Shown here one piece after another: positions 7,691-23,179 of a stretch of DNA of 64,000 bases; position 1 is the stretch's first letter, and every line of letters starts with the position of its first letter. This DNA comes from Candidatus Levyibacteriota bacterium. Lineage in GTDB: Bacteria > Patescibacteriota > Microgenomatia > Levybacterales > UBA12049. The stretch is from assembly GCA_017991775.1 (NCBI GenBank), contig JAGOPV010000001.1, forward strand, positions 20,869 through 84,868, read 5' to 3'. Made by a program: the position numbers and the translations under genes. Under the pieces are notes generated by a model. It was given only the letters and a program-made list of their open reading frames with translations, searched no databases and was not told the DNA's origin.

Positions 7691-7984
7691 TTATCTCCGT
7701 CGATCAGAATCACGATCTGAATCTTTTGACATAAGTCCCTTGACCAATTTTGCAACACTTATCAGAGTGCTTGCCTTGACACCCATTGAGAGCGATGCAA
7801 GAGAAGAGAGAGGGCGAGATACGCTCTCGGTAATAGAGTGAGCATCTTCGATAATCTTGTTAGCCTTTAAAAGTGATTGCCTAGCTTCTTTAATAAAAAG
7901 ATAGACCTGTGCACCAATAATCACCAAAACAACCGTCACGATTACGATCACTGATAGAAGAATTATTTGAATAAAATCAATCAT
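7691..7984 (-). CDS. Small membrane protein (DUF948-like)
   Basis: N-terminal TM helix (IILLSVIVIVTVVLVIIGAQVYLF) plus a coiled-coil-like tail; co-directional with the ftsK/rodZ-like block. Confidence 0.4.
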   Translation of the reverse strand: MIDFIQIILLSVIVIVTVVLVIIGAQVYLFIKEARQSLLKANKIIEDAHSITESVSRPLSSLASLSMGVKASTLISVAKLVKGLMSKDSDRDSDRRR

Positions 7985-8012
7985 ACCTACCTATTTAGTG
8001 TAGCACATTTCG

Positions 8013-8651
8013 TCAAGGACCTGTTTTGACAGTGATTCTACGCACAACTTCAGACATTTTACCAAATTTATTCACTGCCTTAACAACGATCATAGAGCTA
8101 CCTGGAAAGACACTTACTTTCTTCGTAAACTTACCTCTATCATCAAGCGGAACTGGTATCGTATTCACCGTTAATATGACATTCGGATCTGACTGGCCTG
8201 TAACGGTCACATCGGTCGTCGTCTTTTCACCCTCAGTTGGAGATATCACGCTGAGTGGAGGATTAAAAAAGGCATATCTATATTGATAAAGAAGAAAACC
8301 ACCCAAAAGTAAGAGGAGTCCAAAAATAAGAAGGAGAGTTTGGCCTATCTTAAACCTCTTGATCTGCAAAGGCTTATCCTTAACAAATCCTTTTGGAAGA
8401 ACTCTGATCATTTGTTCCTCATCAAATTCTCGTCTAAAAAGTGCTAAGATCTCTCTTTGTGGAAGATCAAGATACTCTGCATAATTTCGCACAAAGCCCT
8501 GCGCATATGAAGGAGATGGAAGCTTTTGGTACTCTCCCCGCTCGATAGCCGAGAGGAAAGAAGACCTGATGCGAGTATCAGATGCGGCATTTTCTAAACT
8601 TAATCCTTTTTTCAAACGAGCTTCTTTCAAGCGCTGACCTACTCTAATCAT
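8013..8651 (-). CDS. RodZ-like cytoskeleton protein (XRE-type HTH + TM + extracytoplasmic domain)
   Basis: N-terminal HTH (LKEARLKKGLSLENAASDTRIRSSFLSAIERGEY), central TM helix (LLLIFGLLLLLGGFLLY), C-terminal beta-rich domain. Confidence 0.65.
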   Translation of the reverse strand: MIRVGQRLKEARLKKGLSLENAASDTRIRSSFLSAIERGEYQKLPSPSYAQGFVRNYAEYLDLPQREILALFRREFDEEQMIRVLPKGFVKDKPLQIKRFKIGQTLLLIFGLLLLLGGFLLYQYRYAFFNPPLSVISPTEGEKTTTDVTVTGQSDPNVILTVNTIPVPLDDRGKFTKKVSVFPGSSMIVVKAVNKFGKMSEVVRRITVKTGP

Positions 8652-8657
8652 ATGTAG

Positions 8658-10799
8658 TTACTCTTGTGGGGTTGAAGATCCATTGAGAAATGCATCAACA
8701 TCACGAACGAGAATATCTCTTGGCTTTGCACCATCCGCATGTCCAACGACCCCGGCTTCTACTAATTGATCAATGATGCGAGCTGCCTTGGCATACCCAA
8801 TAGACATTTTTCTCTGCAAGAATGAGGCAGATGCTTGATTGAACTGGCAAACTATTCTCACTGCATCCTCAAACTCTGGGTCACGTCCACCAGGTCCACC
8901 TCCACTAGATGATCCACCTTTCCCCCTGACATTCACTGGCTGATTAATCACCTCTTCTGTATACTCAACAGGATAATTGTTGTTCTTGAGGAACTCAACT
9001 AACTTCTTTACCTCTTTCTCAGATACATACGCACCCTGAAGTCGTGTTGGCTTTGCCATATCTGGAGGTGTATAAAGCATATCCCCTCGACCTAAGAGCT
9101 TTTCGGCACCAGGACTATCTAAGATAACTCGAGAATCAATCATGGATGACACGTTGAAGGCAATTCTAGTTGGAATATTTGCCTTAATAAGTCCAGTTAT
9201 AACGTTGACAGATGGTCTCTGTGTCGCAATAACAAGATGTATTCCGGTCGCTCGAGCCATCTGTGCAAGACGCGCGATCGCATCCTCAACTTCAACTGGC
9301 GCGAACATCATAAGATCTGCCAACTCGTCGATCACAACGACGATGTATGGAAGTGCCTGGAAGCCTGAGAGCTCATTATAGCCCTCAATATTGCGCACGC
9401 CTCTCTCAGCAAAGAGCTTATAGCGCCTATCCATCTCTCCCATCGCCCATTTCAGAGCAGAAAGGATCTTATCAGGCTCCACAATTACTGGAGTCAAAAG
9501 ATGGGGAATGCCATTAAAGGCTGAGAACTCAACGCGCTTTGGATCGACAAGAATTAATTTGACCTCCTGAGGCGAAGCTCTAAAGAGAAGTGAGCAAATA
9601 AATGAGTTAACAAGTACTGATTTTCCTGACCCAGTTGTACCAGCTACGAGAACATGCGGCATCTTACCAATGTCTGCAATTTGCGGACTTCCGGACACAT
9701 CAAGACCCATCGAGACTGCCAGCTTTGATTTACTCTTTTGCATCGCAGGTGAGGCGAGCATTGTGCGAAGTGTGACGACCTCAAGCGATCTATTTGGAAT
9801 CTCAATACCTACAAGATTGCGCCCTGGAATTGGAGCCTCAATACGAATCTGACCGGTTGGTGCCTCTGTTGCCAGAGCCAAGTCATTTGCAAGTGAGGTG
9901 ATCTTTGAGACTTTCGTTCCTAGAGCGATCTCGAGTGCGTACTGCGTGACTGCTGGACCAAGATTCACCTCAGCTACATGAGCCTCAACGCCAAAACTCT
10001 GCAGTGTCTTCTCAATTAAAGAAGCGGTCTTATTGATATCTCCACGCTCCGCCTTTGCACCTGGCGCTTCACTCAGGAGTGAAAGGGCAGGGTACTCCCA
10101 GATACCATTTCCACCTTCACCCAGAACATTGGTGATTAGTTTCGCTGCAATCAGATCATCTGGCTCGTCTTTTTTATTTGGGGCTTGCTGGTTCATCTTT
10201 AATGGCTGAACTGGCATGTCTTTCTGCTGCCCACCTTTGATAATGATCGGCTTTGATCGATCAAGTGATGACTCCCCTTTTGGATCTCTCTTAAAAAGAC
10301 TTGTAGGCACCATTCTATGAGAATTGTTCATGAGGCCTTGAACACCCTTAACGATCTCATCTGCAGATGTATCAAAGAAGACAACAACGCCGATGATTGC
10401 ACCAGCAATAAAAACGAGATCAGCACCAATTGTTGTTAAAATTTCCTCCAAAATATGGAACATTCCAAGTCCAACCGTGCCACTCTTTGTGAGGCCCAAA
10501 AGTGCAACGAAAAAAACGAGGTAACCAAAGGCGACATGTGCTCGAGAGAGATACATCTTCAAATGAAGTAAGAGCATAGCGAAAAAGAATGGAACGAGGG
10601 GAAAGAGAAATGATGCACCTGCAAATTTCTCTAAAAGAATATCATTTAACCGAGCTACAGTATCACCATTTCTTAGAAATGAGAGGAAGAATAATCCAGA
10701 AAGTGCGATCAAACCTAAGGAAAAGAGCGTGTAGATAGTATTCTTTTTGAGCTTGACCTTAAAACCTTTTCGTCTGCTAGAGCGTTTCTTTGACTTCAT
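8658..10799 (-). CDS. ftsK: DNA translocase FtsK/SpoIIIE
   Basis: N-terminal TM helices, motor domain with Walker A (VLVAGTTGSGKSV) and C-terminal gamma-domain-like winged helix. Start chosen at the internal MKSKKRSS (10799); the ORF-track start is 10838. Confidence 0.85.
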   Translation of the reverse strand: MKSKKRSSRRKGFKVKLKKNTIYTLFSLGLIALSGLFFLSFLRNGDTVARLNDILLEKFAGASFLFPLVPFFFAMLLLHLKMYLSRAHVAFGYLVFFVALLGLTKSGTVGLGMFHILEEILTTIGADLVFIAGAIIGVVVFFDTSADEIVKGVQGLMNNSHRMVPTSLFKRDPKGESSLDRSKPIIIKGGQQKDMPVQPLKMNQQAPNKKDEPDDLIAAKLITNVLGEGGNGIWEYPALSLLSEAPGAKAERGDINKTASLIEKTLQSFGVEAHVAEVNLGPAVTQYALEIALGTKVSKITSLANDLALATEAPTGQIRIEAPIPGRNLVGIEIPNRSLEVVTLRTMLASPAMQKSKSKLAVSMGLDVSGSPQIADIGKMPHVLVAGTTGSGKSVLVNSFICSLLFRASPQEVKLILVDPKRVEFSAFNGIPHLLTPVIVEPDKILSALKWAMGEMDRRYKLFAERGVRNIEGYNELSGFQALPYIVVVIDELADLMMFAPVEVEDAIARLAQMARATGIHLVIATQRPSVNVITGLIKANIPTRIAFNVSSMIDSRVILDSPGAEKLLGRGDMLYTPPDMAKPTRLQGAYVSEKEVKKLVEFLKNNNYPVEYTEEVINQPVNVRGKGGSSSGGGPGGRDPEFEDAVRIVCQFNQASASFLQRKMSIGYAKAARIIDQLVEAGVVGHADGAKPRDILVRDVDAFLNGSSTPQE

Positions 10800-10854
10800 G
10801 ATACTTATCCATAATAGCACATACCTAGCCTCACGCAACTACTATACGAAGTTT

Positions 10855-12567
10855 TTAGACCTCAATCACAACGGGGAGTACAAGTGGACGCTTTCGAAGT
10901 CTCTTAAAGATATATTTACTTGCTGTCTCTTCAATTTGCTTTCTTGTATGCACCCAGTTAGTGACTCTTCCCTTTTTAGTAGCAAGGATGTTCTTTAGCT
11001 CATGGGCAAGACCTGTCTCAATCAATTTAGCATCAGCTGGCAAAAGTCCTCGAACAATAAAGTCGGGCCTATCAACAAGCTGGCCATTTGCAGCCGAAAC
11101 TTCGATCATTAAGATCAAAATACCATCTTTTGCTAATTTCTCTCTATCTCGAAGGACAAACCCCTCGATCTCCCCTCCCGAAACCTGATCAACATAGACA
11201 TTTTTCATTGGAATCTTTCGCCCCTTCTTATACCCATCTTTCCAGAAAATGATCTCCTGACCATTTTCAATGATAAGGACATTCTTCTCTGGATAATCAA
11301 GCTTGAGCGCTAGCTCTTTATAGTAAACAAGGTGCTTATAATTACCACTAATTGGGATGACGAACTTGCCCTTTAGAAGCGACATCATCATGTAATGATC
11401 TTGGATAGATCCATGACCGGAGACGTGTAGAAGTGCACCTTGCTGCGAAGTAATTGCATGTGCTCCAGTCTTTGCAATTGAGTCGATAAGGCTATTAACA
11501 GCTTCTTCATTACCAGGAATTGGATCTGATGAGAAGACGACGACATCATCTTTTGTCAGATGGATTTCACGATGCTCACCCTCTGCGATTCGGGTAAGCG
11601 CTGAGTTCTCTTGCCCCTGACTTCCAGCTGCAATATAAACAAGCTTGTTGTCTGGATAATTTGAAGCTTGAGCAAGCTCTATAAGCGTCCCATCCTGAAC
11701 TTGAAGATAGCCAATTCGCTTCGCAACATCGGTCACTTTCACAAGCGATCGTCCCACAAGACAAACTTTACGACCATACTTCTCGGCTGCTGCAATAATT
11801 TGGTTGATTCTTGCAACGTTTGACGAATATGTCGTCAGGATGAATTTACCCTTACACTCAGAAAGTGCTCTCTCAAATGATTTTCCGATTCCTTGGTCTG
11901 AAGGCGTTTGACCTTGGCGATCAGATCCCAGTGAATCACTAAGGTGCACCATGACTCCCTCTTTAGCAAAATTCGCGATTGACTCAAAGTCCATTCGCTT
12001 TTTGTCATAAGGTGTTAGATCAATCTTAAAATCGCTGCCATGATAAAAATTACCGACAGGAGTCCTAATAAAAATATTTGCACTATCTGGAACCGAGTGG
12101 GTGACATGAATAAAGCTACAACTAAAGCTCCCGAGTGTTATTGGTTTATCCCCAAAAGATACTGAGCGCACATCCGCTGGCAATTCTAATTCACGCAATT
12201 TTTCATTTGCAAGGGCTGCTGTAAATGGAGTTGCGTACACCGGCATCTTTGGAAGCTGTGGCAAAATAAATGGAATAGCACCGATATGGTCTTCATGTCC
12301 ATGAGTAAGGAGGAGTCCAACTATCTTTTTCTTTGTTGTCAGAAGATAACTGATATCTGGAATAAGAAGGTCAACGCCAAGCATTGAACTGTCTGCAAAT
12401 CCAATACCACAATCAACTATGAGAATTTCATCTTTGTATTCATAAAGATATAAATTCTTTGTAACGTCTTCCAGTCCTCCAAGCGGAAGGAAAGAGACTG
12501 TATCTGCTGGCACTGATTGTGCATTTTTTTGATGATGTACTGGCTGTGGTGTAATTTGTTTTTCCAT
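10855..12567 (-). CDS. rnj: Ribonuclease J (metallo-beta-lactamase / beta-CASP RNase)
   Basis: LLLTHGHEDHIGAIPFI motif, beta-CASP region and C-terminal domain; 570 aa. Confidence 0.85.
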   Translation of the reverse strand: MEKQITPQPVHHQKNAQSVPADTVSFLPLGGLEDVTKNLYLYEYKDEILIVDCGIGFADSSMLGVDLLIPDISYLLTTKKKIVGLLLTHGHEDHIGAIPFILPQLPKMPVYATPFTAALANEKLRELELPADVRSVSFGDKPITLGSFSCSFIHVTHSVPDSANIFIRTPVGNFYHGSDFKIDLTPYDKKRMDFESIANFAKEGVMVHLSDSLGSDRQGQTPSDQGIGKSFERALSECKGKFILTTYSSNVARINQIIAAAEKYGRKVCLVGRSLVKVTDVAKRIGYLQVQDGTLIELAQASNYPDNKLVYIAAGSQGQENSALTRIAEGEHREIHLTKDDVVVFSSDPIPGNEEAVNSLIDSIAKTGAHAITSQQGALLHVSGHGSIQDHYMMMSLLKGKFVIPISGNYKHLVYYKELALKLDYPEKNVLIIENGQEIIFWKDGYKKGRKIPMKNVYVDQVSGGEIEGFVLRDREKLAKDGILILMIEVSAANGQLVDRPDFIVRGLLPADAKLIETGLAHELKNILATKKGRVTNWVHTRKQIEETASKYIFKRLRKRPLVLPVVIEV

Positions 12568-12574
12568 AGTTATT

Positions 12575-13708
12575 TTAAAGTGTTATAAAATCTTTTACAT
12601 TGTCAGGACCGATTCTCACATATTGAGCTTTCCCTTCGATGATTTGTCGAGCGACCTTGCGACACATTCCTTCAATTGTTCGTTCTAATGAGCGTATTCC
12701 AGAATCAAACCCTAATGGCCTGATCACAGATTGCCAGACAGTGTCATCAACGACTATCTGCTGCTCTGTTAATCCTGAATTCGAACGAATTCTCTTGAAG
12801 AGATAGTTCTTTGCGATGATGACCTTTTCATCATCTGAATATGATGGCATTTGAATTATCTCAAGTCTATCTAATACCGCTGTTGAAATATTGGTCGTAT
12901 TATTTGCAGTTGCGATAAAAAACACATTTGAAAGATCAAATGGAAAATCAATGTAATGATCCAAAAACGAATAATTCTGCTCTGGATCTAGAAGCTCTAC
13001 CAGAACTCCCATGATATCTCCGCGATAACTCTCAGTGACACGATCTAACTCATCCAAAAGTATTACTGGATTCTTAGATCCTGCATGAACTAGCTTTTTA
13101 ATGACCGCGCCTGGCTCAGAATCAGGAAGCGCTTTTGACTGACCCCTTAATGAGCGAGAGTCGGCCATGCCTCCAAACGGAATACGTTCAAATTTTTTAT
13201 TAAGAGCATCAGCGACAGACTTGGCAAGGGTCGTTTTACCTGTACCTGCTAAGCCAACCAGGCAAAGAATTGGTGCGCGCTGAACGACATCCTTCCTACC
13301 TGCTTTTAAATTTAGGATTATAGTTGCAAGATAATCCAAAATACGATTCTTAATCGAATCAAGTCCATAATGGTTTTGATCCATCAGCTCTTTTGCATGA
13401 AGAAGATCCAATGTGTCCTGAGTCTGAGTCTCCCAAGGGAGAGTAACTACCCAATTCACAAATGACGATGTATTCTCATACTCGAGAATATAATTTGCGC
13501 TCATGAATCCCGAGCTTGAACGTAAAAGTGCTAGTCTTGAAACTCTTTCAAGAATATTAAGTTTTAATTGATCTGGAAGCTTTGCCTGCTCGACTCTTTC
13601 TCCAAGTCTTCGAATTTGATCTGTTGATTCATGTGTGGCTGATTGAGAGCTCGCACTTTGAGGTTGAATTATTTGATCGCTAATGACACTGGCAGTCGGT
13701 TCGGGCAT
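12575..13708 (-). CDS. Lon-like AAA+ ATPase lacking the protease domain
   Basis: Strong Lon AAA+ similarity: YGLDSIKNRILDYLA, Walker A LVGLAGTGKTT, Walker B LLDELD, sensor ATANN, LDRLEII, SGIRSLER. The protein ends (..KDFITL) where the Lon peptidase domain would begin, and the Lon N-domain is also absent. Confidence 0.75.
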   Translation of the reverse strand: MPEPTASVISDQIIQPQSASSQSATHESTDQIRRLGERVEQAKLPDQLKLNILERVSRLALLRSSSGFMSANYILEYENTSSFVNWVVTLPWETQTQDTLDLLHAKELMDQNHYGLDSIKNRILDYLATIILNLKAGRKDVVQRAPILCLVGLAGTGKTTLAKSVADALNKKFERIPFGGMADSRSLRGQSKALPDSEPGAVIKKLVHAGSKNPVILLDELDRVTESYRGDIMGVLVELLDPEQNYSFLDHYIDFPFDLSNVFFIATANNTTNISTAVLDRLEIIQMPSYSDDEKVIIAKNYLFKRIRSNSGLTEQQIVVDDTVWQSVIRPLGFDSGIRSLERTIEGMCRKVARQIIEGKAQYVRIGPDNVKDFITL

Positions 13709-13723
13709 ATACTACTATCTTAC

Positions 13724-16120
13724 CTAATAATGTGTTCTTCTGCGAGGGCTTGATCCTGCTGGTCTTTTCTCAACTCTTTCTCTCTCAAATTGACGAGAAA
13801 GTGGATGCTTAGTCTCAGCTGCGTCAGCTGCTGGAGCCTCAACTCTATTAAAATCACGTCTAAATGGTGCTGGTGCTGGCCGAGATGCTGGAGCTCCATA
13901 TGCAGGTCGTGGAGATGCGCTTCTTCTCTCAAAAGGTGGTCTTGATGAACTTGACGATGGTCTTCTTTCATATCCACCACTTCTTGGCTCTCGAGGTGGC
14001 TGACCTGATCCAGAATCAGTACTTTCACCACTCTCACCAAACTTCATAGTAAGATTAATTCTTCCTTGATCATCAATCTCCTGAACTCGGACCTTTACCA
14101 CTTCTCCAAGCGATACAACATCCTCAGGTGAATTAACAAATCCTTCGCCCATCTTAGAAACATGTACCATGCCTTCTTTACCAGGCAAGATCTCAACAAA
14201 TGCACCGAAAGGCAAGATTCTCTTAACTGGACCATCAAATACCTCTCCAACCATTACTTCACGGGTCAATCCCTTTACCCATTCAATTGCTTTGTTGACT
14301 GCTTCGCTATCAGTTCCAGAGATAGTTACCGATCCATCATCTTCAACGTCAACTGTCGCTCCAGTTGTTGCGATGATATTCTTGATAGTCTTTCCACCAG
14401 GACCAATAAGTTCGCCAATCTTCTCGACTGGAATAGTTACAACTTCGATCTTTGGAGCATACTTTGAAAGTTCAGCACGTGGTGCTGCGATCGCATTATT
14501 CATTTTTTCAAGAATAATCATTCTTGCTGACTGAGCTCTATCCAAGATCTCTCCAACTTGCTTATCTGTAAGACCTGGAACTTTAACGTCCAATTGGATA
14601 GCTGTAATGCCTGTGTCTGTTCCTGCTACCTTAAAGTCCATATCTCCAGAGAAATCTTCAATTCCGATAATGTCTGTAATAAGAACATAGTCTTTCTCGT
14701 TTGACATCATTCCGACTGAAATTCCAGCTACTGGCTTAGTGATTGGCACACCAGCGTCCATGAGCGCGAGTGTTGATCCGCAAGTTGATGCCATAGAGCT
14801 TGATCCGTTCTGGGAAAGAACTTCTGAGACAACTCGGATCGTGTACGGGAATGCAGCCTTTGTTGGGATAACGGCCTCAAGTGCTCTCTCTGCCAATGCT
14901 CCATGACCTGTCTCTCTTCGAGAAACTGATCCAAATCTTCCAGCCTGTCCGAATGAATATGGTGGTCCTGAATAATGATGAATATATCTCTTTGATTCTT
15001 CGCCTTCTGCAGATTCAAGCAATTGTTCCATGCGAGGAGAGCCCAGAGTTACAATTGAAAGCGCCTGTGTAAGACCTCTATTAAAGACTGCTGACCCGTG
15101 AGTTCTTGGCAAAAGTCCAAGTTCCATAGAAATATCTCGTATTTGATCAATCTTTCTTCCATCAGCTCTCACTTTTTTCTCAATAAGATTTGATCTAATG
15201 ATCTTGAACATGACAGCTTCTAGTGCTTTTCCAAGAATCTTTTTATCAAGAGATGTTTCAGAATCTGCAGATTTTGCAGCCTCAACGATCTTAGCTAAGA
15301 GCTCAACTGTCTCAGATCCTCCGCCCTCTTTGTTCGCACTAGCTTCGATCAATGCCTCAACCTCAGCACTGTATGACTTCTCAACAAATGCAATTGCATC
15401 TGCAACTAATGGATCTTTTGCAACTTCAATTTTTGCTTGACCGATCTCTTTCGTGACCTTTTCGATAAAGGCAACCATTTTCTGCGTCTCTTTATGAGCC
15501 TCTACGATCGAATTATGGACAACATTCTCAGGAACCTCTAATGCTCCAGCTTCAATCATTACTGTCAGATCCTTACTCTGACTTGCAACGATATCGAGCT
15601 TTGACACTTTCATTTCACTACCTACTGGATTGAAAATGTATTCTCCTGCTTCATCAAGACCCATACGGATAGCTCCAATTGGACCTTTCCATGGAATTGG
15701 TGAGATAGCAAGCGCAAGGGAAACTGCATTAAGAGCTAAGATGTCTGGCTTGTGCTCTCCATCTGCTGAAAGAAGTGTTACAACTACCTGTACTTCATTT
15801 TTATATTCCTTGGGGAAAAGTGGTCTAATAGAGCGATCGATAAGTCTTCCGATAAGAACCGCTTCATCAGTTGGACGTCCTTCTCGCTTTACCCATCTAC
15901 TACCCTTGATGCGGCCACCAGCATAGAGCTTTTCTGCATATTCAACACTAAGTGGGAAATAATCAATATCATCACGAGCATTTCCTGCGACGACAGTAAC
16001 AAGCACGACAGTTTCACCTAAGCGTGCTAACACGCTTGATGTTGCTTGTGGAGCTAGGGTACCGATATCAAATTTGATTTCTTTTCCGGCGAATTCAATC
16101 ACCTGTGAGGTCTTTTGCAT
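13724..16120 (-). CDS. pnp: Polynucleotide phosphorylase (PNPase) with an extra ~110-aa R/S/P-rich C-terminal tail
   Basis: Two RNase PH domains, a KH domain and an S1 domain (VGEVFDGPVKRILPFGAFVEI), followed by a low-complexity tail (..RRPSSSSSRPPFERRSASPRPAYGAPASRPAPAPF..). Confidence 0.9.
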   Translation of the reverse strand: MQKTSQVIEFAGKEIKFDIGTLAPQATSSVLARLGETVVLVTVVAGNARDDIDYFPLSVEYAEKLYAGGRIKGSRWVKREGRPTDEAVLIGRLIDRSIRPLFPKEYKNEVQVVVTLLSADGEHKPDILALNAVSLALAISPIPWKGPIGAIRMGLDEAGEYIFNPVGSEMKVSKLDIVASQSKDLTVMIEAGALEVPENVVHNSIVEAHKETQKMVAFIEKVTKEIGQAKIEVAKDPLVADAIAFVEKSYSAEVEALIEASANKEGGGSETVELLAKIVEAAKSADSETSLDKKILGKALEAVMFKIIRSNLIEKKVRADGRKIDQIRDISMELGLLPRTHGSAVFNRGLTQALSIVTLGSPRMEQLLESAEGEESKRYIHHYSGPPYSFGQAGRFGSVSRRETGHGALAERALEAVIPTKAAFPYTIRVVSEVLSQNGSSSMASTCGSTLALMDAGVPITKPVAGISVGMMSNEKDYVLITDIIGIEDFSGDMDFKVAGTDTGITAIQLDVKVPGLTDKQVGEILDRAQSARMIILEKMNNAIAAPRAELSKYAPKIEVVTIPVEKIGELIGPGGKTIKNIIATTGATVDVEDDGSVTISGTDSEAVNKAIEWVKGLTREVMVGEVFDGPVKRILPFGAFVEILPGKEGMVHVSKMGEGFVNSPEDVVSLGEVVKVRVQEIDDQGRINLTMKFGESGESTDSGSGQPPREPRSGGYERRPSSSSSRPPFERRSASPRPAYGAPASRPAPAPFRRDFNRVEAPAADAAETKHPLSRQFERERVEKRPAGSSPRRRTHY

Positions 16121-16124
16121 TTAT

Positions 16125-16394
16125 TTAGTCTTTCAATCCTATCTTCTTCTTAATATCTGAGGAACGGGTCTTATCGACCTTAACCAAAAAATTGAGAAGT
16201 CTTCTTCTTTTAGCGATCATGGACAAGAGTCCACGTCTACTATGAGTATCATGCGCATGATCTTTAAGGTGATCAGCGAGCCTTGTGATGCGGTGAGTAA
16301 GGAGTGCGATCTGCACTTCTGGACTACCAGTATCACCATCCACTGTCTGGAATGATTTAATTATATCTTGTTTTTGTGTCGTTGAAAGCGGCAT
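16125..16394 (-). CDS. rpsO: 30S ribosomal protein S15
   Basis: 89 aa; matches the S15 family (..GSPEVQIALLTHRITRLADHLK..) in the classical rpsO-pnp arrangement. Confidence 0.9.
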   Translation of the reverse strand: MPLSTTQKQDIIKSFQTVDGDTGSPEVQIALLTHRITRLADHLKDHAHDTHSRRGLLSMIAKRRRLLNFLVKVDKTRSSDIKKKIGLKD

Positions 16395-16440
16395 AACGAT
16401 GTATATTATATCAATTCACGATCCAAACCGCAACAGACCT

Positions 16441-17571
16441 TTATGAAACAGAGGTAGAACCTTTGTACACCTTAGGTGTTAGCCAGTCAGATGGCGGCTT
16501 TGGCTGGTTATTATCAGATGCAAGATCAGGCACCAAGACAGGAGCGCTCTCTGAAGCAGGCTCCATAGATGGCTGACTATTCTGTGGTTGAGACTGTTGC
16601 TGTTGTTGACCACTATTTCTATTTACATGCTGTCTTAACGCTTCACGAACATTCTCTCTTCTATCTTCAGTGCGAGGCTGCTGATTTTGATTCTGATTTT
16701 GGCTTGAACGATGTGAATTATCCTGCCTTGGCTGATTTGATCCTGTTCTCACTGGTGAGGATTGGTTTGGTCTTTGTGATGGTCTAGGCAATTCATCTGC
16801 TCGATCAAGCCTAGGAGTAGCTTGCTGTGGTCGAACTGAAGTAGCCTTTCTTACTGCACCCCTCTTAATAAGGATTGATGCGATCTCAAAAGCAAGATAA
16901 CTAGTCTTTGGATCTTGGAAATTATTTGTTGCGTCAGTTAGGCCAATCATGAGGTTTTGTGACACATCAACATCTAGCTCCATTTCAAGATTAAGAAGAA
17001 GGTCAGCCACCTGCTCTGAGAGCGATGAAAACTTTGCAGAAACGAGAACAACATTCCCATACCCTTCATTAGTACTGACATTATCAATATTTAATAGTGT
17101 TACGGCATTGAGAATTTCCTCAGAAAACATTGAAGAAAGCTGAGAAATTGAGCCAACTCCAACTGAGATGATCATGTCTGGCTTATCTGCTCCTCGCTTA
17201 AATTGAACATCGCTCTCCTGGAATGTAAGACCCTTCTCGCCCGCCTTAACAACAATATTAAGAGCATCGCCTTCAATGGTATATGAAACCTTATCAATTT
17301 CTCCCTCTCTATACGGAAATGAAACAACGAGATCGCCATTTCCACCCTCGTCTGCACCTTTTACACGGTCAATACCAACGAGTGATGAGTGCTCAACAAG
17401 AGCTGCGGTTGGGGAAATAACGTATGTCTTTTTTCCCTGAGCATTCATGCTTAGAGAGATTGCAAGCGCACCGGCCATTTGATCAACTGAGGGATTTGCG
17501 GAGACCACTATAGCTACACGATTACTTCGTGCGATAAGATCGCGAATTTGTGATAATGCATTTGTATCCAT
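16441..17571 (-). CDS. DHH-family (NrnA-like) phosphoesterase homologue with degenerate catalytic motifs and a Q/N/P-rich tail
   Basis: Alignable to NrnA, but motif I is PSVDQMAG rather than PDxDxxGS, motif III is NIDNV rather than DHH, and there is no GGGH. The C-terminal ~110 aa are low-complexity (QNQNQNQQPR..). Confidence 0.55.
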   Translation of the reverse strand: MDTNALSQIRDLIARSNRVAIVVSANPSVDQMAGALAISLSMNAQGKKTYVISPTAALVEHSSLVGIDRVKGADEGGNGDLVVSFPYREGEIDKVSYTIEGDALNIVVKAGEKGLTFQESDVQFKRGADKPDMIISVGVGSISQLSSMFSEEILNAVTLLNIDNVSTNEGYGNVVLVSAKFSSLSEQVADLLLNLEMELDVDVSQNLMIGLTDATNNFQDPKTSYLAFEIASILIKRGAVRKATSVRPQQATPRLDRADELPRPSQRPNQSSPVRTGSNQPRQDNSHRSSQNQNQNQQPRTEDRRENVREALRQHVNRNSGQQQQQSQPQNSQPSMEPASESAPVLVPDLASDNNQPKPPSDWLTPKVYKGSTSVS

Positions 17572-17582
17572 AGTATCCTATA

Positions 17583-19022
17583 TTATTCATGGGATATTAT
17601 CACATCTCCAACCTGGAAGTCAAGTAATGGGGAGATAATTATGCCTGCTTCATTTCCTTTTTCTACCTTCGAAAGTGGGTTCTTTCCAACTCGTAGTGAG
17701 ATAATCTGGGTCTCGCCAATCACTGTATCTCCACGCATAATGCGAGCCCTGTCCCCTTTTGCTAGACGTCCATCTAGAATTCCCACACCAAGCGCAAATG
17801 TCTTCTCAAATGGAAATTTAGCCAAGACTTTAGCCTGACCATAGACCTGCTCCATCATGGAGAGCTCCTTACCTTCGATCGCATCGGCAATCTCACTTAA
17901 AAGCTCATAAATAATCGTATAGTTCTTCGTCAAAACCTTCTCTGTACGAGCAAGCGTTGCAACTTCTGGCCTGATCTTTGAATTAAACCCGATCACAAAG
18001 GCTCCAGTTGACTTTGCAAGCAAAATATCAGCCTCAGTCATTTCGCCTGTCTTCTGAGTGATAATCTTTGCTTTATCAGAAATTGCTGCAGTTATTGCCT
18101 CAAGTGAGCCTTGAGTATCAGCTAAAAGTATAAGAGCCAACTCTTCTTTATTAGCATTTGGCTGATATGCCTTCACAGCTCCAGTAGCTTGAACTTCTAT
18201 TTTTGCAGACTCAACATTGCTAATAATACTTCCAACTTCAGGAACTTGTAAAAATCCTAAGATCTCAACTGCATCACCAACTGTTGCTGAGGCTACCGTC
18301 CTGCCGGCATCATCGAGAAGATTGCGAACCTTGAACTTCCCACCAGTACTAAATAGCTCATCTCGAGGTGTGACTGTTCCACTTTTTACGATGACTGTCG
18401 CACGAGGGCCCATCTTTTGATCAAGTTTGGACTCAATCACAATAGCTGAAAGTGGCTGATCTGATGTAGCGCTTGGGCTCTCAGATGTATGGAGTTCTTG
18501 AACAAGAAGAATGAGATCTAAAAGCTCTTTGATATTCTCCTTTGTCTTTGAGGAGACTTCAATAACAGGTATATCTCCACCCATGCCCTCGACCATTAGT
18601 CCTTCACGGACAACTTGGCCTTTTACCTTCTCTGGATTCTTGGTCTGAAGATCCGACTTAGTAAGAACGACAATCAAAGGTACCCCAGACTCCTTGAGCA
18701 CATTAATACTTTCTCTCGTCTGTGGCATGACACCATCTGTTGATGATACTACGAGAAGTCCGATATCGGCAGCCTGTGCCCCTCGACCTCTCATTTTCGA
18801 GAAAGCTTCGTGCCCAGGAGTATCAATAAATGTGATCTTTCTTTTTTTACCATCATGAAGGACTTCGATTGATGATGCGCCAATTTTCTGGGTAATACCC
18901 CCGTGTTCACGATCAACAATAGAAGTTTCACGAATTGAGTCAAGAAGCGAGGTTTTGCCGTGGTCGACGTGACCTAAGACAGCTACGACAGGTGGATAAA
19001 GTGTTGTGTTTGTTTCAGCCAT
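17583..19022 (-). CDS. infB: Translation initiation factor IF-2 (short form, no N-terminal extension)
   Basis: The G domain starts at residue ~10 (VVAVLGHVDHGKTSLLD, DTPGHEAF, NKSD) and is followed by beta-barrel domains; 479 aa. Confidence 0.85.
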   Translation of the reverse strand: MAETNTTLYPPVVAVLGHVDHGKTSLLDSIRETSIVDREHGGITQKIGASSIEVLHDGKKRKITFIDTPGHEAFSKMRGRGAQAADIGLLVVSSTDGVMPQTRESINVLKESGVPLIVVLTKSDLQTKNPEKVKGQVVREGLMVEGMGGDIPVIEVSSKTKENIKELLDLILLVQELHTSESPSATSDQPLSAIVIESKLDQKMGPRATVIVKSGTVTPRDELFSTGGKFKVRNLLDDAGRTVASATVGDAVEILGFLQVPEVGSIISNVESAKIEVQATGAVKAYQPNANKEELALILLADTQGSLEAITAAISDKAKIITQKTGEMTEADILLAKSTGAFVIGFNSKIRPEVATLARTEKVLTKNYTIIYELLSEIADAIEGKELSMMEQVYGQAKVLAKFPFEKTFALGVGILDGRLAKGDRARIMRGDTVIGETQIISLRVGKNPLSKVEKGNEAGIIISPLLDFQVGDVIISHE

Positions 19023-19054
19023 AATGAATTAAATCTAACTAACATATGAGTCGA

Positions 19055-20221
19055 TTAAGCCTTGGTATCGTCGGACTCGTCATTTTCAGTAGCAACTTCA
19101 GGTGCAGTCTCAGCAGTCTCAGCAGTCTCAGATACAGCTTCTGGCTGTGATTCAACTTCCGCTACCTCTTCTACCTCAGGTGTAGGCTCAGCTACAGCTT
19201 CATCTACCTTCACTTCTTCAACTTCTGGCTTAGTCTCTACTTCTTCCACTTTAGCCTCCTCGGTTACTACTGGACCACTACCCTCTATTTCGATACGGTA
19301 TCCTGTCAGTTTTGATGCCAATCGCACATTCTGGCCATCTTTACCTATGGTAAGTGAGAGCTCTTCTTGAGGAACAAAAATCTTCGCCATCTTTTCTTCT
19401 TCATGAAGCTCTACGCGAACATTCTTTGCTGGAGAAAGTGATGCTGCAATAAAAGCTGTTGTGTCGTTTTGCCACTGAATAATGTCGATCTTTTCCATAC
19501 CATTGAATTCTTGAATGATAGCCTGAACACGGACACCTTTCTGTCCAACACAGCTTCCGACTGGATCAATTCCACTCTGGGTTGAGGCTACGGCGACCTT
19601 AGCTCGATTACCAGGCTCGCGAACAATCTCTTTGATCTCAACACTGCCTGACGCTACTTCTGGTACCTCTCGCTTGAAAAGACCCTCAAGGAGACCATTG
19701 TCACTTCGTGAAACGATTACTTCCTCGCCCTTAATACCTTCTTTTATTTCCTTAAGGAAGACAACAAGGCGCTGATTCTGGTAATACTTTTCATTTTGGA
19801 TTTGCTCTGAAATAGGCATAAGAGCCTCAGTCTTTCCTATATCAATAATGATGTTAGGACCTGCAAAACGAAGAACAGTTCCATTGATGATCTGACCCAT
19901 CTTGATCTTGTAGTCTGAAATAATAGCTTCTTTTTCTTTCTCGCGGATCTTCTGCAAGATCACTTGCTTTGCTGTCTGAGCCGCAATACGTCCAAATCCA
20001 GGAGGTGTAACATCTTTTCCGTTGTGGAGAATACTTGCCTCACCCGTATTAGGATTGAGGTCAGCTGCGAACTCTTCGACTTCAATGCCAGGATGATCTT
20101 TTCGATAGGCTGCAAGAATAGCATTCTTAACTGTGTCAAGAACAACACTGATATCAACGCCACGTTCTGTCGCGACTTGATTGAGGGCAAGAGCAAATTC
20201 ACTTCTTTGTACTGCTGGCAT
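19055..20221 (-). CDS. nusA: Transcription termination/antitermination factor NusA with acidic repeat tail
   Basis: NusA N-domain, S1 and KH motifs (MPAVQRSEFALALNQVATERG..). The C-terminal E/V/A/T repeats are encoded by a 9-bp x3 tandem (cagtctcag) near 19110-19140. Start taken at 20221; the ORF-track start is 20296. Confidence 0.85.
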   Translation of the reverse strand: MPAVQRSEFALALNQVATERGVDISVVLDTVKNAILAAYRKDHPGIEVEEFAADLNPNTGEASILHNGKDVTPPGFGRIAAQTAKQVILQKIREKEKEAIISDYKIKMGQIINGTVLRFAGPNIIIDIGKTEALMPISEQIQNEKYYQNQRLVVFLKEIKEGIKGEEVIVSRSDNGLLEGLFKREVPEVASGSVEIKEIVREPGNRAKVAVASTQSGIDPVGSCVGQKGVRVQAIIQEFNGMEKIDIIQWQNDTTAFIAASLSPAKNVRVELHEEEKMAKIFVPQEELSLTIGKDGQNVRLASKLTGYRIEIEGSGPVVTEEAKVEEVETKPEVEEVKVDEAVAEPTPEVEEVAEVESQPEAVSETAETAETAPEVATENDESDDTKA

Positions 20222-20300
20222 AGTATGTCTAGTATACCAGATAAGCCCAGCACGATCAACAGCGTGAGAACGAGGTGCCTGAAGATGAGGAGTCAAGCAT

Positions 20301-22706
20301 TTACATACTTTTTACTTGCAAATTATTTGAAGTGTCAACATACATTTCCAGAACCTGGCCACGACCTATCTCATTCTTAAGAAGTTTTTGAGCAAGTATA
20401 TCCTCAATAGTGTCTTGCACGTATCTCCTAATCGGACGAGCACCATACTCAGCATTATATGCCTCCGTCGCTACCTTCTTAGCAACACTCTCTGAGAATG
20501 TCACCGTAATATCTTTTTCTTTTAGAGAATTAGAGACTTCCGCAAGAATAAGTTGCGCAATCCTCTCCACATCTTCATGGGAAAGTGGTGAAAAGGTGAT
20601 GACACTGCCAAACCTATTGAGAAGTTCAGGCCTAAAAAGATGATTTTGCGCTAGGTAAGACATAAGCTGCTGGGGGAACTCAGCGGTATTCCCGCCGCCA
20701 GACTGGACAGCCTTATAAATAAAGTCAGACCCTGCATTTGAAGTCGCAATAATAATTGTATTAATAAACGAGACAGTCTTTCCTCGATTATCTGTGAGCC
20801 TACCGTCCTCCAAAACTTGAAGGAAGAGATTCAGAATGGCTGGATGTGCTTTCTCAAATTCATCAAGGAGGATTAAGGAATTTGGATTGTCGCTCACTTT
20901 CTCAGTAAGCTCTCCGCGCTGCTCACCCTCCCCGGGAAGTGATCCTAAAAGTCTTCTAACCCCATCCTCAGTCGTATATTCGCTCATATCAAGTCTTATC
21001 ATTGAGGCCTCGCCGCCAAAATAGACTTCCGCGAGTGTCTTTGCAACCTTTGTCTTACCAACTCCGGTAGGTCCGAGAAAGAGAAACGAGATAGGTTTTC
21101 TTTGCACTTCGACACCAGATCGAAGTCTTCTCATCCCTTCTGCAATTGCAGTCACTGCTACATTTTGCCCTATGACACTTTTGTGGAGGATCTCTTCAAG
21201 ACGCAAAAGTGTGTCTTTTTCAGAAGATGATGGGTCATGCATGGCGATCTTTGTCTTACTTTCTATCGAAGTGATTAAAATATCCTCAGTCAAGATAAGT
21301 TTTTTGGTATTACCATAGTAAAGCTTTGGCTGATGTGACGGCAGTGCACTGATTGCATCGCGCAAAAGATCGACACCGCTTCCTGGGAGCACTTCTTTAT
21401 TCGCAAAATACCGATCAGCATAAACAGTTGCTTGGTGGACTGCAAGATAGGTGATGATGATCCCGTTCTCCTTCTCAAGTTCGCCCGCTTTCTCCATTAA
21501 GATTTTCTCTGCAAAATCGATAGCAGGCTCTTCAATGATAATTTCATTGAACATCTGATTGAGGACTGTCGAAGCAAGGTATGTCTTATATGCGCCCTTA
21601 CTCATTGTCGTGATCACTGGGAGCTTGCCAGTCTTAAGATATGGCATAAGTGCCCCAGATAGATCGAGCGCAAAACTACCTGAGCCTAGAAGGTTCTCGA
21701 ATTCTGGGATGTAGAGAATAAGATTCTCTGCATGTGAAACTTCATCAATGATGCTTTGCAGCCGCTCTTCTAGCTCACCTTTCTCATTGGTCCCAGCCAA
21801 TAGTTCTCCAGCCATGAGCTCTATTACTGTCTTATTTTCAAGACCATGGGGAACTTGCTTTGCAAAACTATCCGAGACGAACTTTCGAACAAGATTCTCT
21901 TTCCCGGTTCCGACATCGCCAACAAGGACAATATTATTGTTCTCAGTCTTTGAAAGGCCTTCAAGCATCCTTTGATATTCAGCTTCTCTACCCATGCCAA
22001 ATGTATGGCCAGATCCAGTAAATACTCTTGTGTACTTTAAGGTCTCTGGCGTCCATCCAGTTAAAAGACTCTCACCGATACCGCCTCCTGGTACAGTAAT
22101 CTTTAATTTTCTTGGCGATTCTTCATCTTTATTCTCATTTCTTGCCCATGCAAGTATCTTGAACACATCCTCAGCGCGCAGCTTTTTAGATCTTAGGACA
22201 TGTACGACTGGCTCCTCCTCAAGCAGATATGCAGCAGCAACATCCATTGAAGTTATGACAGTTCCTCCAACTTTTTGAGCAACAACACCTGCGCTGGCAA
22301 GCAGAACATCTTTTGCCATCGTACTCTTTGGCAAATCTTTATCTGTTAATGGGATTCTTTCTAGCAGGAACTGAACATGCGGAAAAGCGAGTAACTTATG
22401 GACCATCTCATGCGCGTCACTACTAGACTGATACGCAAAGAGGACACTAATACTAGCTACATCTTTATCGGTAGTGCCAGGTGTGCCAAGCTTCCTAGTT
22501 GGATATCCAAGCGATATTCCATAACGATAAAAAATCTCAAACATGATAAAAAGATTGAGGAAGAAAAGTGGAAGTCGTGGATGAATCCCATCCAAAATCA
22601 TGAGCGCTGTAATGCCAGATAACCCTAGCAAAACAAGAATGCGCAGCAACTTTACAAAACTTGTTCTATAGATTCCATAAATAAAGGCTGTGTTAATTAA
22701 ATTCAT
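20301..22706 (-). CDS. Membrane-anchored Clp/Hsp100-type double AAA+ ATPase (ClpC-like) with a degenerate D1 module
   Basis: Two N-terminal TM helices, a Clp_N-like region, then D1 with atypical Walker A (GDVGTGKE) and Walker B (ILYIPEF). D2 is canonical (GPTGVGKT, LILLDEFEKAH, ATSNAGS, GARPIRR). No IGF/IGL ClpP-docking tripeptide seen. Confidence 0.7.
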   Translation of the reverse strand: MNLINTAFIYGIYRTSFVKLLRILVLLGLSGITALMILDGIHPRLPLFFLNLFIMFEIFYRYGISLGYPTRKLGTPGTTDKDVASISVLFAYQSSSDAHEMVHKLLAFPHVQFLLERIPLTDKDLPKSTMAKDVLLASAGVVAQKVGGTVITSMDVAAAYLLEEEPVVHVLRSKKLRAEDVFKILAWARNENKDEESPRKLKITVPGGGIGESLLTGWTPETLKYTRVFTGSGHTFGMGREAEYQRMLEGLSKTENNNIVLVGDVGTGKENLVRKFVSDSFAKQVPHGLENKTVIELMAGELLAGTNEKGELEERLQSIIDEVSHAENLILYIPEFENLLGSGSFALDLSGALMPYLKTGKLPVITTMSKGAYKTYLASTVLNQMFNEIIIEEPAIDFAEKILMEKAGELEKENGIIITYLAVHQATVYADRYFANKEVLPGSGVDLLRDAISALPSHQPKLYYGNTKKLILTEDILITSIESKTKIAMHDPSSSEKDTLLRLEEILHKSVIGQNVAVTAIAEGMRRLRSGVEVQRKPISFLFLGPTGVGKTKVAKTLAEVYFGGEASMIRLDMSEYTTEDGVRRLLGSLPGEGEQRGELTEKVSDNPNSLILLDEFEKAHPAILNLFLQVLEDGRLTDNRGKTVSFINTIIIATSNAGSDFIYKAVQSGGGNTAEFPQQLMSYLAQNHLFRPELLNRFGSVITFSPLSHEDVERIAQLILAEVSNSLKEKDITVTFSESVAKKVATEAYNAEYGARPIRRYVQDTIEDILAQKLLKNEIGRGQVLEMYVDTSNNLQVKSM

Positions 22707-23179
22707 GCAAATAATAAATAAATCGTGACAAATGGAAAGAGTAAAAAACCAATAAGAAGCACCAGTTCAAGTATGAGCAATGGAATAAAGAGGATAAGTG
22801 ATGCAAGAATGATCATAGACTTAATCGCCATTCCCATCCCCCGCGAGAACCCGACAAGTCCTTTACGATACTCATTTTTAAGCGGTTTAAAAAAAGTCTT
22901 GAGAAGTAAAAAGACTGAAAAAACCTCAAAGTATGCAGCATTCAACTGCATAAAATAACGAACTAAGCCTAGCGGTGCACGAATGAACCAAAAATATAAG
23001 AATCCTATGGGGAGCATGAGCAGGGCAGGCATACAAATTACTCTCTCAAGTATACGATCCCTACAATTAAAACTCAACAAATTTAAAATTATGTATAATA
23101 CGATTATGGCTATTCCCGAAAGAAATTTGCCCAATCCAGACGTAGTCCCCGGTCCACAAGCGCTTACAGCAGATATCAT
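22703..23179 (-). CDS. Polytopic small membrane protein, overlaps the downstream Clp-like gene by 4 nt
   Basis: About four hydrophobic helices; the ATGA overlap with the 20301-22706 gene suggests translational coupling. The start codon is uncertain. Confidence 0.45.
   Translation of the reverse strand: MISAVSACGPGTTSGLGKFLSGIAIIVLYIILNLLSFNCRDRILERVICMPALLMLPIGFLYFWFIRAPLGLVRYFMQLNAAYFEVFSVFLLLKTFFKPLKNEYRKGLVGFSRGMGMAIKSMIILASLILFIPLLILELVLLIGFLLFPFVTIYLLFA

Follow-up and report, generated by a model that had tools for sequence, protein, structure and literature searches.

A Lon-type ATPase gene without a protease, located between two genes of RNA decay, raises two questions: whether it is the remnant of a longer gene and, if not, what its product might do. 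In the window, the whole 64-kb stretch of DNA that was analysed, this gene (lon', 12575..13708) encodes a 377-aa LonA-derived AAA+ ATPase, which has neither the N-terminal substrate-binding domain nor the S16 peptidase. All features for which a coordinate range is given here lie on the minus strand. The gene is preceded by rpsO, encoding ribosomal protein S15 (16125..16394; Pfam Ribosomal_S15, 4e-28), and by pnp, encoding the 798-aa polynucleotide phosphorylase (13724..16120; NF008805, 847 bits; Pfam RNase_PH twice, KH and S1). It is followed by rnj, encoding the 570-aa RNase J (10855..12567; TIGR00649, 496.8 bits at a cut-off of 400; Pfam RNase_J_b_CASP and RNase_J_C). The pnp stop and the lon' ATG are separated by 15 nt. 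The lon' reading frame ends cleanly, as noted before, and its stop lies 7 nt from the rnj ATG according to the ORF coordinates.

Domain content and fold of Lon'

Pfam assigned an AAA domain (aa 148-286) and a Lon_lid domain (310-361) to Lon' and no further domain; Lon_C (PF05362) and LON_substr_bdg gave no match. The lon model TIGR00763 aligns only over its positions 250-570 of 795 and reaches 331.7 bits at a cut-off of 608.05, and NF008053 likewise stays below its curated equivalog cut-off (258.8 bits, cut-off 891). The N-domain (1-245) and the P-domain (586-784) of E. coli Lon were used as phmmer queries against the ORFs (60 aa or longer) of the window and of 88 related loci, and neither found a match. 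No S16 domain is encoded within about 10 kb of lon' in 80 species or anywhere in the 64-kb window.

The best phmmer match in the PDB is LonA of B. subtilis (3m6a, 1e-76). An AF2 model of Lon' has a pLDDT of 82.6, with values below 50 over aa 1-23, and the top Foldseek matches are the AAA+ domains of LONP1 and LonA (6n2i: TMq 0.81, TMt 0.89). The N-terminal tail (aa 1-27, 13628..13708) is variable, rich in P, Q, S and T and predicted to be disordered; in the aligned homologues its length lies anywhere between about 20 and about 100 aa, and no column is conserved there. Next comes a helical bundle, aa 28 to about 112 (13373..13627), which leads into the AAA+ core and corresponds to residues 246 to about 325 of E. 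coli Lon; the model places helices at 22-41, 46-66, 71-89 and 102-112. The original prediction that the Lon N-domain and the peptidase domain are both missing holds, but the last helical part of the N-terminal region is kept. The C-terminal end of Lon' coincides with the linker between AAA and protease domains of LonA.

The ATPase site was described as intact, and Pfam, motif comparison and fold match agree on this. Walker A reads GLAGTGKTT (aa 152-160, 13229..13255) where full-length LonA has GPPGVGKTS. Walker B is LLDELD (D219 and E220, 13043..13060), sensor 1 is present as N269/N270, the Arg finger R281 lies in the segment LDRLE (12860..12874) and the sensor-2 residue R339 in GIRSLER (12680..12700). 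In a motif comparison of 27 full-length LonA with 18 protease-less short forms, all five elements, including the Arg-finger segment, are kept in 18/18 of the latter. The JGI label "ATP-dependent Lon protease" overstates the capability of Lon' proteins, and this misnaming distorts protease inventories in metabolic reconstructions of CPR bacteria.

Family breadth and pore-loop 1

The best 120 homologues of Lon' are 363-451 aa long and consist of AAA and Lon_lid only. A search with a member of a second branch (P0165) listed another 120 proteins, none with Lon_C, and the named members among them are Dojkabacteria or Patescibacteria; over both searches, 240/240 listed homologues carry AAA/Lon_lid only. 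Relatives are encoded in 416 GTDB species genomes, and the ORF measures 320-508 aa in 80/80 species loci that were kept. The protease-less forms are monophyletic inside LonA (100/100 neighbour-joining bootstraps, 284 columns), and the clade occurs in Levybacteria and Dojkabacteria. Judged from these sequences, the loss of the N-terminal and S16 domains is real and clade-wide. Over 79 species, the median identity to the window orthologue is 64% for Lon', 62% for pnp, 59% for infB and 55% for rnj; by this measure Lon' is under as much constraint as PNPase. Literature searches on Lon and on CPR/Patescibacteria yielded no account of a protease-less Lon' family, and two CPR genome papers make no mention of Lon.

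The nearest named full-length Lon representatives belong to the Firmicutes. A search for Rosetta-stone fusions gave giant proteins as top-scoring representatives, with 2-4 tandem Lon AAA modules and in some cases S16. Their Walker A is the canonical GPPGVGKTS and not of the Lon' type, so they are uninformative on partners of Lon'. A role as anti-phage defence ATPase was also rejected, as PADLOC returned weak generic AAA matches only (best DolB, 2.4e-9, 35 bits).

Lon' departs from the Lon type in pore-loop 1, a feature which the original prediction had missed. All 27 full-length LonA have a loop of the type RGHRRTY[IV]G.MPG; the gripping residue is Y in all but one, which has F. The 18 short forms instead share a loop of the type RG.S[KR]...D[AS]EPG (18/18; canonical LonA loop 0/18). 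The window protein reads RGQSKALPDSEPG (aa 188-200, 13109..13147) against RGHRRTYIGSMPG of Lon, with L194 at the position of the LonA Tyr, which is a substrate-contacting residue (PMC8503904). The rewritten loop has the general form RGQS[KR]A[F/L]PD[AS]EPG, and D196 and E198 are invariant in both Levybacteria-type alignments (A1, A2). At the Tyr position, Levybacteria have F or L and other branches of the clade R, H, S, E, N or Q; the distant members lack an aromatic residue there. The tally for 183 Levybacteria-type proteins is F 147, Y 15, L 12, M 4 and T 1, so that 89% keep an aromatic residue (F/Y), whereas the window protein has Leu. The proteins of this clade, which is present in hundreds of CPR species, retain only the Lon motor, with its substrate-gripping loop rewritten. 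The earlier description as an unfoldase rather than a protease is borne out in that the protease-less module is genuine; the word "unfoldase", however, needs a caveat, because the TY[IV]G translocation loop has changed throughout, with Leu in place of Tyr in the window protein.

The extreme C-terminus is a further variable part. Among the 183 Levybacteria-type proteins, the last residue is aromatic in 74% (W 113, Y 22), mostly as LPx[W/Y]. The clade of the window protein is without the LPxW ending and terminates in FITL, FIAL or YLNT.

Proposed function and gene neighbourhood

We give a probability of about one half to the reading that Lon', a member of a LonA-derived CPR clade, forms rings and remodels proteins in an ATP-dependent manner without proteolysis. 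An ancestral LonA would have lost its N-terminal substrate-recognition domain and its S16 peptidase long ago, and Lon' would have been kept as a stand-alone protein. Since the Arg finger acts across subunits, its conservation suggests assembly into a ring, and the conserved residues point to ATP hydrolysis. Lon' may then remodel proteins without proteolysis, chaperone-like, in protein quality control. Client segments might be held by the modified, partly acidic pore loop (A-F/L-P-D-A/S-E-P-G) and not by processive threading of the Lon type. Against this reading it counts that ring and ATPase activity are read from conserved residues. The protease ring of LonA helps to hold the hexamer together, so a stand-alone AAA+ ring of Lon' is not guaranteed. 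Threading may also survive in most Levybacteria-type proteins, because 89% keep the aromatic residue, and "non-processive" may therefore be wrong. If active, Lon' is evidence that selection can maintain the Lon motor for a function other than proteolysis, and it would offer a natural minimal system for studying this function. Lon mutants with a dead protease have given hints of such a chaperone-like role.

In favour of this reading, proteostasis genes occur near lon' in several places. The minus-strand gene run of the window that includes lon' is headed by hrcA-grpE-dnaK-dnaJ and a clpC-like gene. Distant members of the clade have groESL, M16/M23 peptidases, UDG and FtsA/PilM-like genes as neighbours: lon' can be divergent from groES-groEL, a Dojkabacterium lon' has groESL 4.7 kb away, elsewhere lon' has two M16 peptidase genes on one side and an M23 peptidase gene on the other, and UDG appears in two contexts. 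With five distant contexts, the evidence from proteostasis neighbours is anecdotal, and statistically it is no better than that from the RNA-decay neighbours. Co-regulation of lon' with heat-shock genes via CIRCE was rejected: the divergent groES/lon' locus (L099) has no CIRCE element, and the sole match in the window, at 49450, has three mismatches and is far from lon'.

A dedicated role of Lon' as remodeller of the RNA-decay machinery, acting on PNPase, for example through its Arg-rich tail or the HPLSxQFxRER motif, or on the co-transcribed RNase J or on both, is conceivable but unlikely. It draws on the gaps of 15 and 7 nt and on gene order, since pnp, lon' and rnj are consecutive and co-directional in 73/88 related loci. 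The same order is part of a longer syntenic block of Levybacteria, clpC-nusA-infB-nrnA-like-rpsO-pnp-lon'-rnj-ftsK-rodZ-like. The conservation of gene order in related genomes, which had been proposed as a check, was thus found, within Levybacteria. In 80 GTDB species loci, tight adjacency was seen in 71% on the pnp side and in 87% for lon'-rnj, which does not exceed the conservation of the unrelated pairs rnj-ftsK (71%) and ftsK-HTH25 (100%) of the same block. The block tolerates unrelated insertions, which reach 3.2 kb between pnp and lon' and 8.7 kb between lon' and rnj; the 79 inserted ORFs cluster into idiosyncratic families without a recurrent gene. The pnp-lon'-rnj order is restricted to Levybacteria, and the linkage to RNases is absent in seven distant contexts: in the other branches rnj is never adjacent, and pnp occurs in one context only, about 4.5 kb off. 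Moreover, an rpsO-pnp pair that follows nusA-infB is widespread in bacteria, so most of the cluster predates Lon'. In the window lon' is probably co-transcribed with pnp and rnj; a promoter and terminator scan of 7800-23200 gave counts at chance level and says nothing on operon structure. The position of lon' between pnp and rnj looks like an inherited gene order of Levybacteria and does not identify a client, so that the role in RNA degradation which had been suggested from it does not follow, and the RNA-decay link of Lon' is weak.

The second argument for this role comes from PNPase itself. Its core ends at about aa 691, and the R/S/P-rich tail noticed before was confirmed as aa 692-798 (13727..14047; 18% R, 15% S, 15% P). 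The tail is basic (22 K+R vs 13 D+E), ends with RRRTHY (13727..13744) and contains the conserved short motif HPLSRQFERER (13775..13807; family form HPLSxQFxRER). In 72 related loci PNPase likewise has a tail, of 50-117 aa. The pattern HPL[STA]x[QAM][FL]xR[EQ] occurs 79 times in the related loci, in PNPase ORFs only, and once in the window. The acidic D196/E198 acquired in the pore loop could suit such Arg-rich segments. However, the one distant context with pnp (L094) has a tailless PNPase of 697 aa and still a Lon' with the DAEPG loop. An extended version would make Lon' a new Lon-derived class of non-proteolytic AAA+ proteins, whose acidic PD[AS]EPG loop is specialised to grip disordered Arg-rich tails, in Levybacteria among others that of PNPase with its HPLSxQFxRER motif; pnp-lon'-rnj would then be a degradosome-like module under ATP control that only these ultra-small bacteria have. 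We regard this as a long shot. The conserved tail motif remains a separate lead on the organisation of RNA-decay enzymes in these bacteria, in which no RNase E-type scaffold was noticed.

Lon' might also be the ATPase half of a split Lon, passing substrates to an S16 or other peptidase encoded elsewhere in the genome, as ClpX does for ClpP and HslU for HslV. The intact ATPase site, the F/Y at the pore-loop position of most Levybacteria proteins and the LPx[W/Y] ending, which could serve as docking tail, would fit such a partnership. We hold it to be improbable, as no S16 domain was found in the neighbourhoods of the 80 species or in the window, the Tyr has been lost, with polar or charged residues taking its place in most branches outside Levybacteria, a change not expected of a threading motor, and the window clade has no LPxW ending. 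PMC9569914 describes every Lon as a single chain carrying ATPase and protease, and offers no precedent for a split form.

A non-threading regulatory or nucleic-acid-associated ATPase, working as ATP-dependent switch, clamp or DNA/RNA-binding factor, would extend the nucleic-acid binding known for Lon instead of acting on proteins, and the rewriting of the translocation loop throughout the clade is in its favour. RuvB, a DNA motor, is a member of the same AAA+ clade, and pnp, rnj and ftsK in the window and UDG in the two distant contexts are compatible neighbours. This is nevertheless very unlikely. The DNA-binding basic patch of E. coli Lon reportedly consists of R306, K308, K310 and K311, and the corresponding stretch in the window protein is E-T-Q-T-Q-D-T-L; the new pore-loop residues are acidic and ill-suited to nucleic acid, and Pfam detected no nucleic-acid-binding domain. 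An artefact or pseudogene, a lon truncated or frameshifted by genome reduction or misassembly, has nothing but the short length in its favour and can be dismissed, since the identical protein is found on two independent assemblies, a 98%-identical locus exists in GTDB, the next gene is only 7 nt away, close and distant relatives are equally short at the locus, and hundreds of same-length orthologues conserve the catalytic residues at the median identity given above.

Comparison with known systems

Lon' is closest to LonA (E. coli Lon, B. subtilis LonA, human LONP1), specifically to its AAA+ module with the helical bundle before it (6n2i, 3m6a). The identity is 33-36% in the structural alignments, and Lon' shares with this module the fold, the Lon-specific lid, Walker A and B, sensor 1, the Arg finger and sensor 2. 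LonA has a PUA-like N-domain and an S16 Ser-Lys peptidase in addition. The two also differ in pore-loop 1 (TY[IV]G in LonA, A[F/L]PD in Lon'), in the Walker A variant given above and in the sensor-2 region (YTREAGVR vs RPLGFDSGIR).

HslU-HslV and ClpX-ClpP belong to the same AAA+ clade and have a stand-alone AAA+ ring subunit of a size similar to Lon'. HslU has a C-terminal activating tail, to which the aromatic C-terminal tail of most Levybacteria proteins may be comparable. Unlike in these systems, no peptidase gene lies near lon' in the 80 species, no IGF-type loop was identified in Lon', and the pore-loop aromatic residue is not conserved across the clade.

The degradosomes organised by RNase E, RNase Y or RNase J use disordered scaffolds with short docking motifs, and the disordered, Arg-rich PNPase tail of Levybacteria, with its one conserved short motif, is formally similar to a degradosome microdomain; there, however, the tail sits on PNPase itself. 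Known degradosomes recruit DEAD-box helicases and are not known to recruit an AAA+ protein of the Lon type.

LonC of Meiothermus taiwanensis is a Lon-like protease for which a chaperone function is reported (PMC3391209, PMC13069640). Like Lon', it is a Lon-family member without one half of the ancestral activity, but the losses mirror each other: in LonC the protease persists beside a dead ATPase, whereas Lon' has no protease but retains the ATPase residues.

Domain architecture and origin of Lon'

The lon' gene (12575-13708, minus strand) encodes a protein of 377 aa, in which Pfam detected an AAA domain (aa 148-286) and a Lon_lid domain (aa 310-361), and nothing else. The NCBIfam model for endopeptidase La (TIGR00763) is covered at positions 250-570 of 795 and gives a score of 331.7 bits, where the cut-off is 608. 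The nearest solved structures are those of LonA from B. subtilis (3m6a; 1e-76) and of the E. coli AAA+ fragment (6n2i; 3e-73). An AlphaFold2 model, built from 78 family sequences, reached a mean pLDDT of 82.6, with aa 1-23 disordered, and was placed by Foldseek on the AAA+ modules of LONP1 and LonA (6n2i: TMq 0.81, TMt 0.89). Lon' is composed of a short disordered tail, a helical bundle (aa 28 to ~112), which is the one preceding the AAA+ core in LonA, an alpha/beta domain and the lid, and it stops where LonA has its AAA-protease linker. At the extreme C-terminus (window 12578-12589), 135 of 183 sequences of the Levybacteria type, the branch that includes the window protein, have a final aromatic residue (W in 113, Y in 22), in most cases within an LPx[W/Y] ending; the window clade has FITL, FIAL or YLNT instead. 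The aromatic ending could serve for docking, or just cap the surface once covered by the protease domain.

The best 120 homologues from a search of 5.8 billion proteins are 363-451 aa long and all contain AAA and Lon_lid only. The peptides IPFGGM[AG]D and [VI]GLAGTGKT, both specific to the family, were used to scan GTDB species genomes, and Lon' relatives were found in 416 of them, with ORFs of 320-508 aa in the 80 loci kept. One of these, L009, is a locus 98% identical to that of the window. A truncated gene was rejected as an explanation because the same protein occurs, identical, on two independent assemblies. The original prediction of a genuine protease-less Lon is thus confirmed by the short form of the relatives and by the rejection of a truncation. 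Over 79 species, the median identity of Lon' to the window orthologue (64%) compares with 62% for PNPase, 55% for RNase J and 59% for IF2, so that Lon' is under constraint at the level of housekeeping proteins. Many of the GTDB contigs with the typical Levybacteria gene order (among L009-L088) are titled "uncultured Gammaproteobacteria bacterium", Methylomirabilota, Limnocylindrales, Lysobacterales or Sulfotelmatobacter, and these records look mislabelled or mis-binned.

Queries with the N- and P-domains of E. coli Lon gave no match in the window or in the 88 related loci. A split protease, with Lon' as the ATPase half and a peptidase gene beyond the window and these loci, is a less probable alternative.

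An exhaustive search of 1.84 billion representative proteins revealed additional protease-less forms with 41-57% identity (P0122, P0130, P0138, P0142, P0144, P0146, P0148, P0155, P0156, P0165 and P0215), assigned to Levybacteria and Dojkabacteria by their source names. A Pfam scan of 8 of these 11 and of P0125 (669 aa) detected AAA and Lon_lid only. In a neighbour-joining tree of 284 AAA+ columns, 18 protease-less sequences form one clade within 27 full-length LonA (100 of 100 bootstraps), which indicates that the domain loss happened once and is old. Two divergent Lon' paralogues apparently occur together on some Dojkabacteria contigs (P0305 and P0392, 1,036,382 bp; P0144 and P0299, 480,107 bp, with P0144 at 10001-11524 of L098), as judged from the matching longest-contig sizes of each pair. 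These pairs raise the possibility of mixed rings. The representative library also contains giant Lon-family proteins of ~900-3900 aa (P0121, P0123, P0124, P0126-P0129 and others) in which two to four Lon-type AAA+ modules stand in tandem. Several of them have the S16 peptidase motif DGPSAG, and some have pore loops with Trp (RGHNRTW...QPG). That they score higher than the true orthologues is due only to the summing of scores over the modules.

Gene neighbourhood and the PNPase tail

The lon' gene belongs to a long co-directional gene run on the minus strand, from 29152 down to 8013. It comprises the heat-shock operon hrcA-grpE-dnaK-(150-aa unknown)-dnaJ (29152 down to 24645), the gene of a ClpC-like double-AAA protein (20301-22706), nusA (19055-20296), a short infB (17583-19022), the gene of an unannotated 376-aa protein (16441-17571), rpsO (16125-16394), pnp (13724-16120), lon', rnj (10855-12567), ftsK (8658-10838) and an HTH_25 (RodZ-like) gene (8013-8651). 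ORF calls and Pfam/NCBIfam matches agreed with the positions and identities first assigned to rnj, lon', pnp and rpsO. The order of rpsO-pnp after nusA-infB is common in bacteria. A gap of 15 nt separates the pnp stop from the lon' ATG, and one of 7 nt the lon' stop from the rnj ATG. Since the gaps are only 7-16 nt, co-transcription of lon' with its neighbours is likely. Promoter and terminator scans around the locus gave chance-level counts and are uninformative on operon structure. The heat-shock operon and the ClpC-like gene precede the nusA...ftsK block and share its strand, so that Lon' is about as near to proteostasis genes as to RNA genes.

The IF2 of the window (17583-19022, minus strand) has 479 aa only, with GTPase, IF-2 and C-terminal domains. 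The long N-terminal region that bacterial IF2 typically has is missing altogether, and its relatives are of similar length (479-490 aa). The 376-aa protein has no Pfam match, and every Levybacteria locus keeps it between infB and rpsO. Its residues 130-240 weakly resemble DHH/DHHA1 phosphodiesterases of the NrnA type (PDB phmmer E ~2e-3), its N-terminal region has no obvious DHH motif, and its C-terminal ~130 aa are rich in Q/N/P/S. Possibly the protein is a nano-RNase homologue that has degenerated. A protein of 784 aa (1157-3511, plus strand), in which a Baseplate_J-like domain is weakly matched, adjoins a sortase (3414-4226, plus strand), and the related loci L003 and L006 have this pair conserved at their edge. 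The sole CIRCE-like inverted repeat of the window (TTAGCGGTCTCAAGACCTCAGTGCTAA; 49450-49476, plus strand; 3 mismatches) is far from the hrcA/dnaK operon and lon', and at least one match this good was found in 3 of 100 shuffles. GC skew is below zero in all 32 bins of 2 kb and accumulates to -2.94 over 64 kb.

The order pnp-lon'-rnj, whose conservation was to be checked, is near-universal, with both neighbours present in 73 of the 88 related loci. However, the synteny spans the entire block from clpC to the RodZ-like gene and is lost outside Levybacteria. Tight adjacency (same strand, gap ≤300 nt) in the 80 GTDB species loci was 71% for pnp-lon' and 87% for lon'-rnj, compared to 71% for rnj-ftsK, 100% for ftsK-HTH25 and 98% for rpsO-pnp. 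Insertions of unrelated genes occur beside lon', of up to 3.2 kb on the pnp side and 8.7 kb on the rnj side. Among the more distant forms, P0142/P0298 lie divergently to groES-groEL, a PilM/FtsA-like gene and groESL are found downstream of P0146 (Dojkabacteria), and UDG follows P0148 and P0155. P0156 has rpsO-pnp 4.5 kb upstream, with four unrelated genes between, and a PilM/FtsA-like gene downstream. P0165 has unrelated neighbours, and P0144 is located between two M16 peptidases and an M23 peptidase. As the neighbours change outside Levybacteria, the RNA-decay neighbourhood appears to be a lineage-specific inherited order. A role in RNA decay, which the original prediction had raised as possible from the position of the gene, is largely unsupported, since the adjacency is no special case within the block.

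The R/S/P-rich PNPase tail of ~110 aa described before is borne out. It consists of residues 692-798 (nt 13727-14047). Arg makes up 18% of it, and Ser and Pro 15% each; basic residues number 22 and acidic ones 13. The tails of 72 related loci have 50-117 aa with ~20% Arg and are poorly conserved, except for the motif HPL[STA]xQ[FL]xRE[RK] (79 occurrences in related loci, in PNPase only) and a basic C-terminus (RRRTHY or KKRFSR). Docking sites usually show up in this way, as a short conserved motif within disordered sequence that otherwise varies, and a putative function of the tail as scaffold is therefore reasonable. In L094, the one distant lineage in which a single contig carries both pnp and lon', the PNPase (697 aa) is tail-less and Lon' is present, so Lon' does not depend on the tail. 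It is doubtful that Lon' is a dedicated remodeller of PNPase and RNase J, since it is kept in L094 with this tail-less PNPase and its neighbourhood is inherited.

ATPase site and pore-loop 1

Lon' retains Walker A and B, sensor 1, the Arg finger (R281) and sensor 2 (R339) in intact form, and the ATPase and Arg-finger residues are kept clade-wide. Clade-specific changes were found in Walker A (GLAGTGKTT vs GPPGVGKTS in LonA) and in RPLGFDSGIR (YTREAGVR in LonA). Pore-loop 1, which was absent from the first account, is redesigned. All 27 full-length LonA compared have the form RGHRRTY[IV]G.MPG, whose Tyr touches the translocating substrate in cryo-EM structures and is needed for degradation (PMC8503904). 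Every protease-less sequence compared has a loop of the type RG.S[KR]..D[AS]EPG instead. Among 183 non-redundant Levybacteria-type sequences, the Tyr position is taken by F in 147, Y in 15, L in 12, M in 4 and T in 1; the window Lon' has Leu, as do the relatives nearest to it, P0001 and P0002. In the other branches the position holds R, H, S, E, N or Q, except in P0144, which retains F. The next residue is Pro in Lon' and Ile/Val in LonA, and the acidic residues D196 and E198 are invariant across Levybacteria-type alignments. By these residues, the motor of Lon' is one with a preserved catalytic site and a redesigned substrate-contacting element, which fits a changed client engagement better than unchanged Lon-type threading.

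The acidic residues new in the pore loop argue against a nucleic-acid role, as does the patch R306/K308/K310/K311, which we take to be the basic DNA-binding patch of E. coli Lon and which reads ETQTQDTL in Lon'. A non-threading regulatory ATPase is an improbable alternative. Lon-type threading may occur in most Levybacteria Lon', in which an aromatic residue survives at the loop position.

Proposed function and relation to known Lon proteins

The best-supported reading, to which we give a probability of about one half, is that Lon' would be a non-proteolytic remodeller derived from LonA. It would form a ring, hydrolyse ATP and act in protein quality control, presumably on protein rather than nucleic-acid clients. 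No curated family takes in the Lon' proteins, which score under the Lon equivalog cut-offs and which the source records list as "AAA family ATPase" or under the misleading name "ATP-dependent Lon protease". Our literature search on Lon and CPR returned no description of a protease-less Lon' family. For specialists in AAA+ proteases the clade is of moderate interest, and it is of use in annotating CPR genomes. Its nearest counterpart in concept is LonC, in which the opposite loss took place: the protease is retained, whereas the ATPase is dead.
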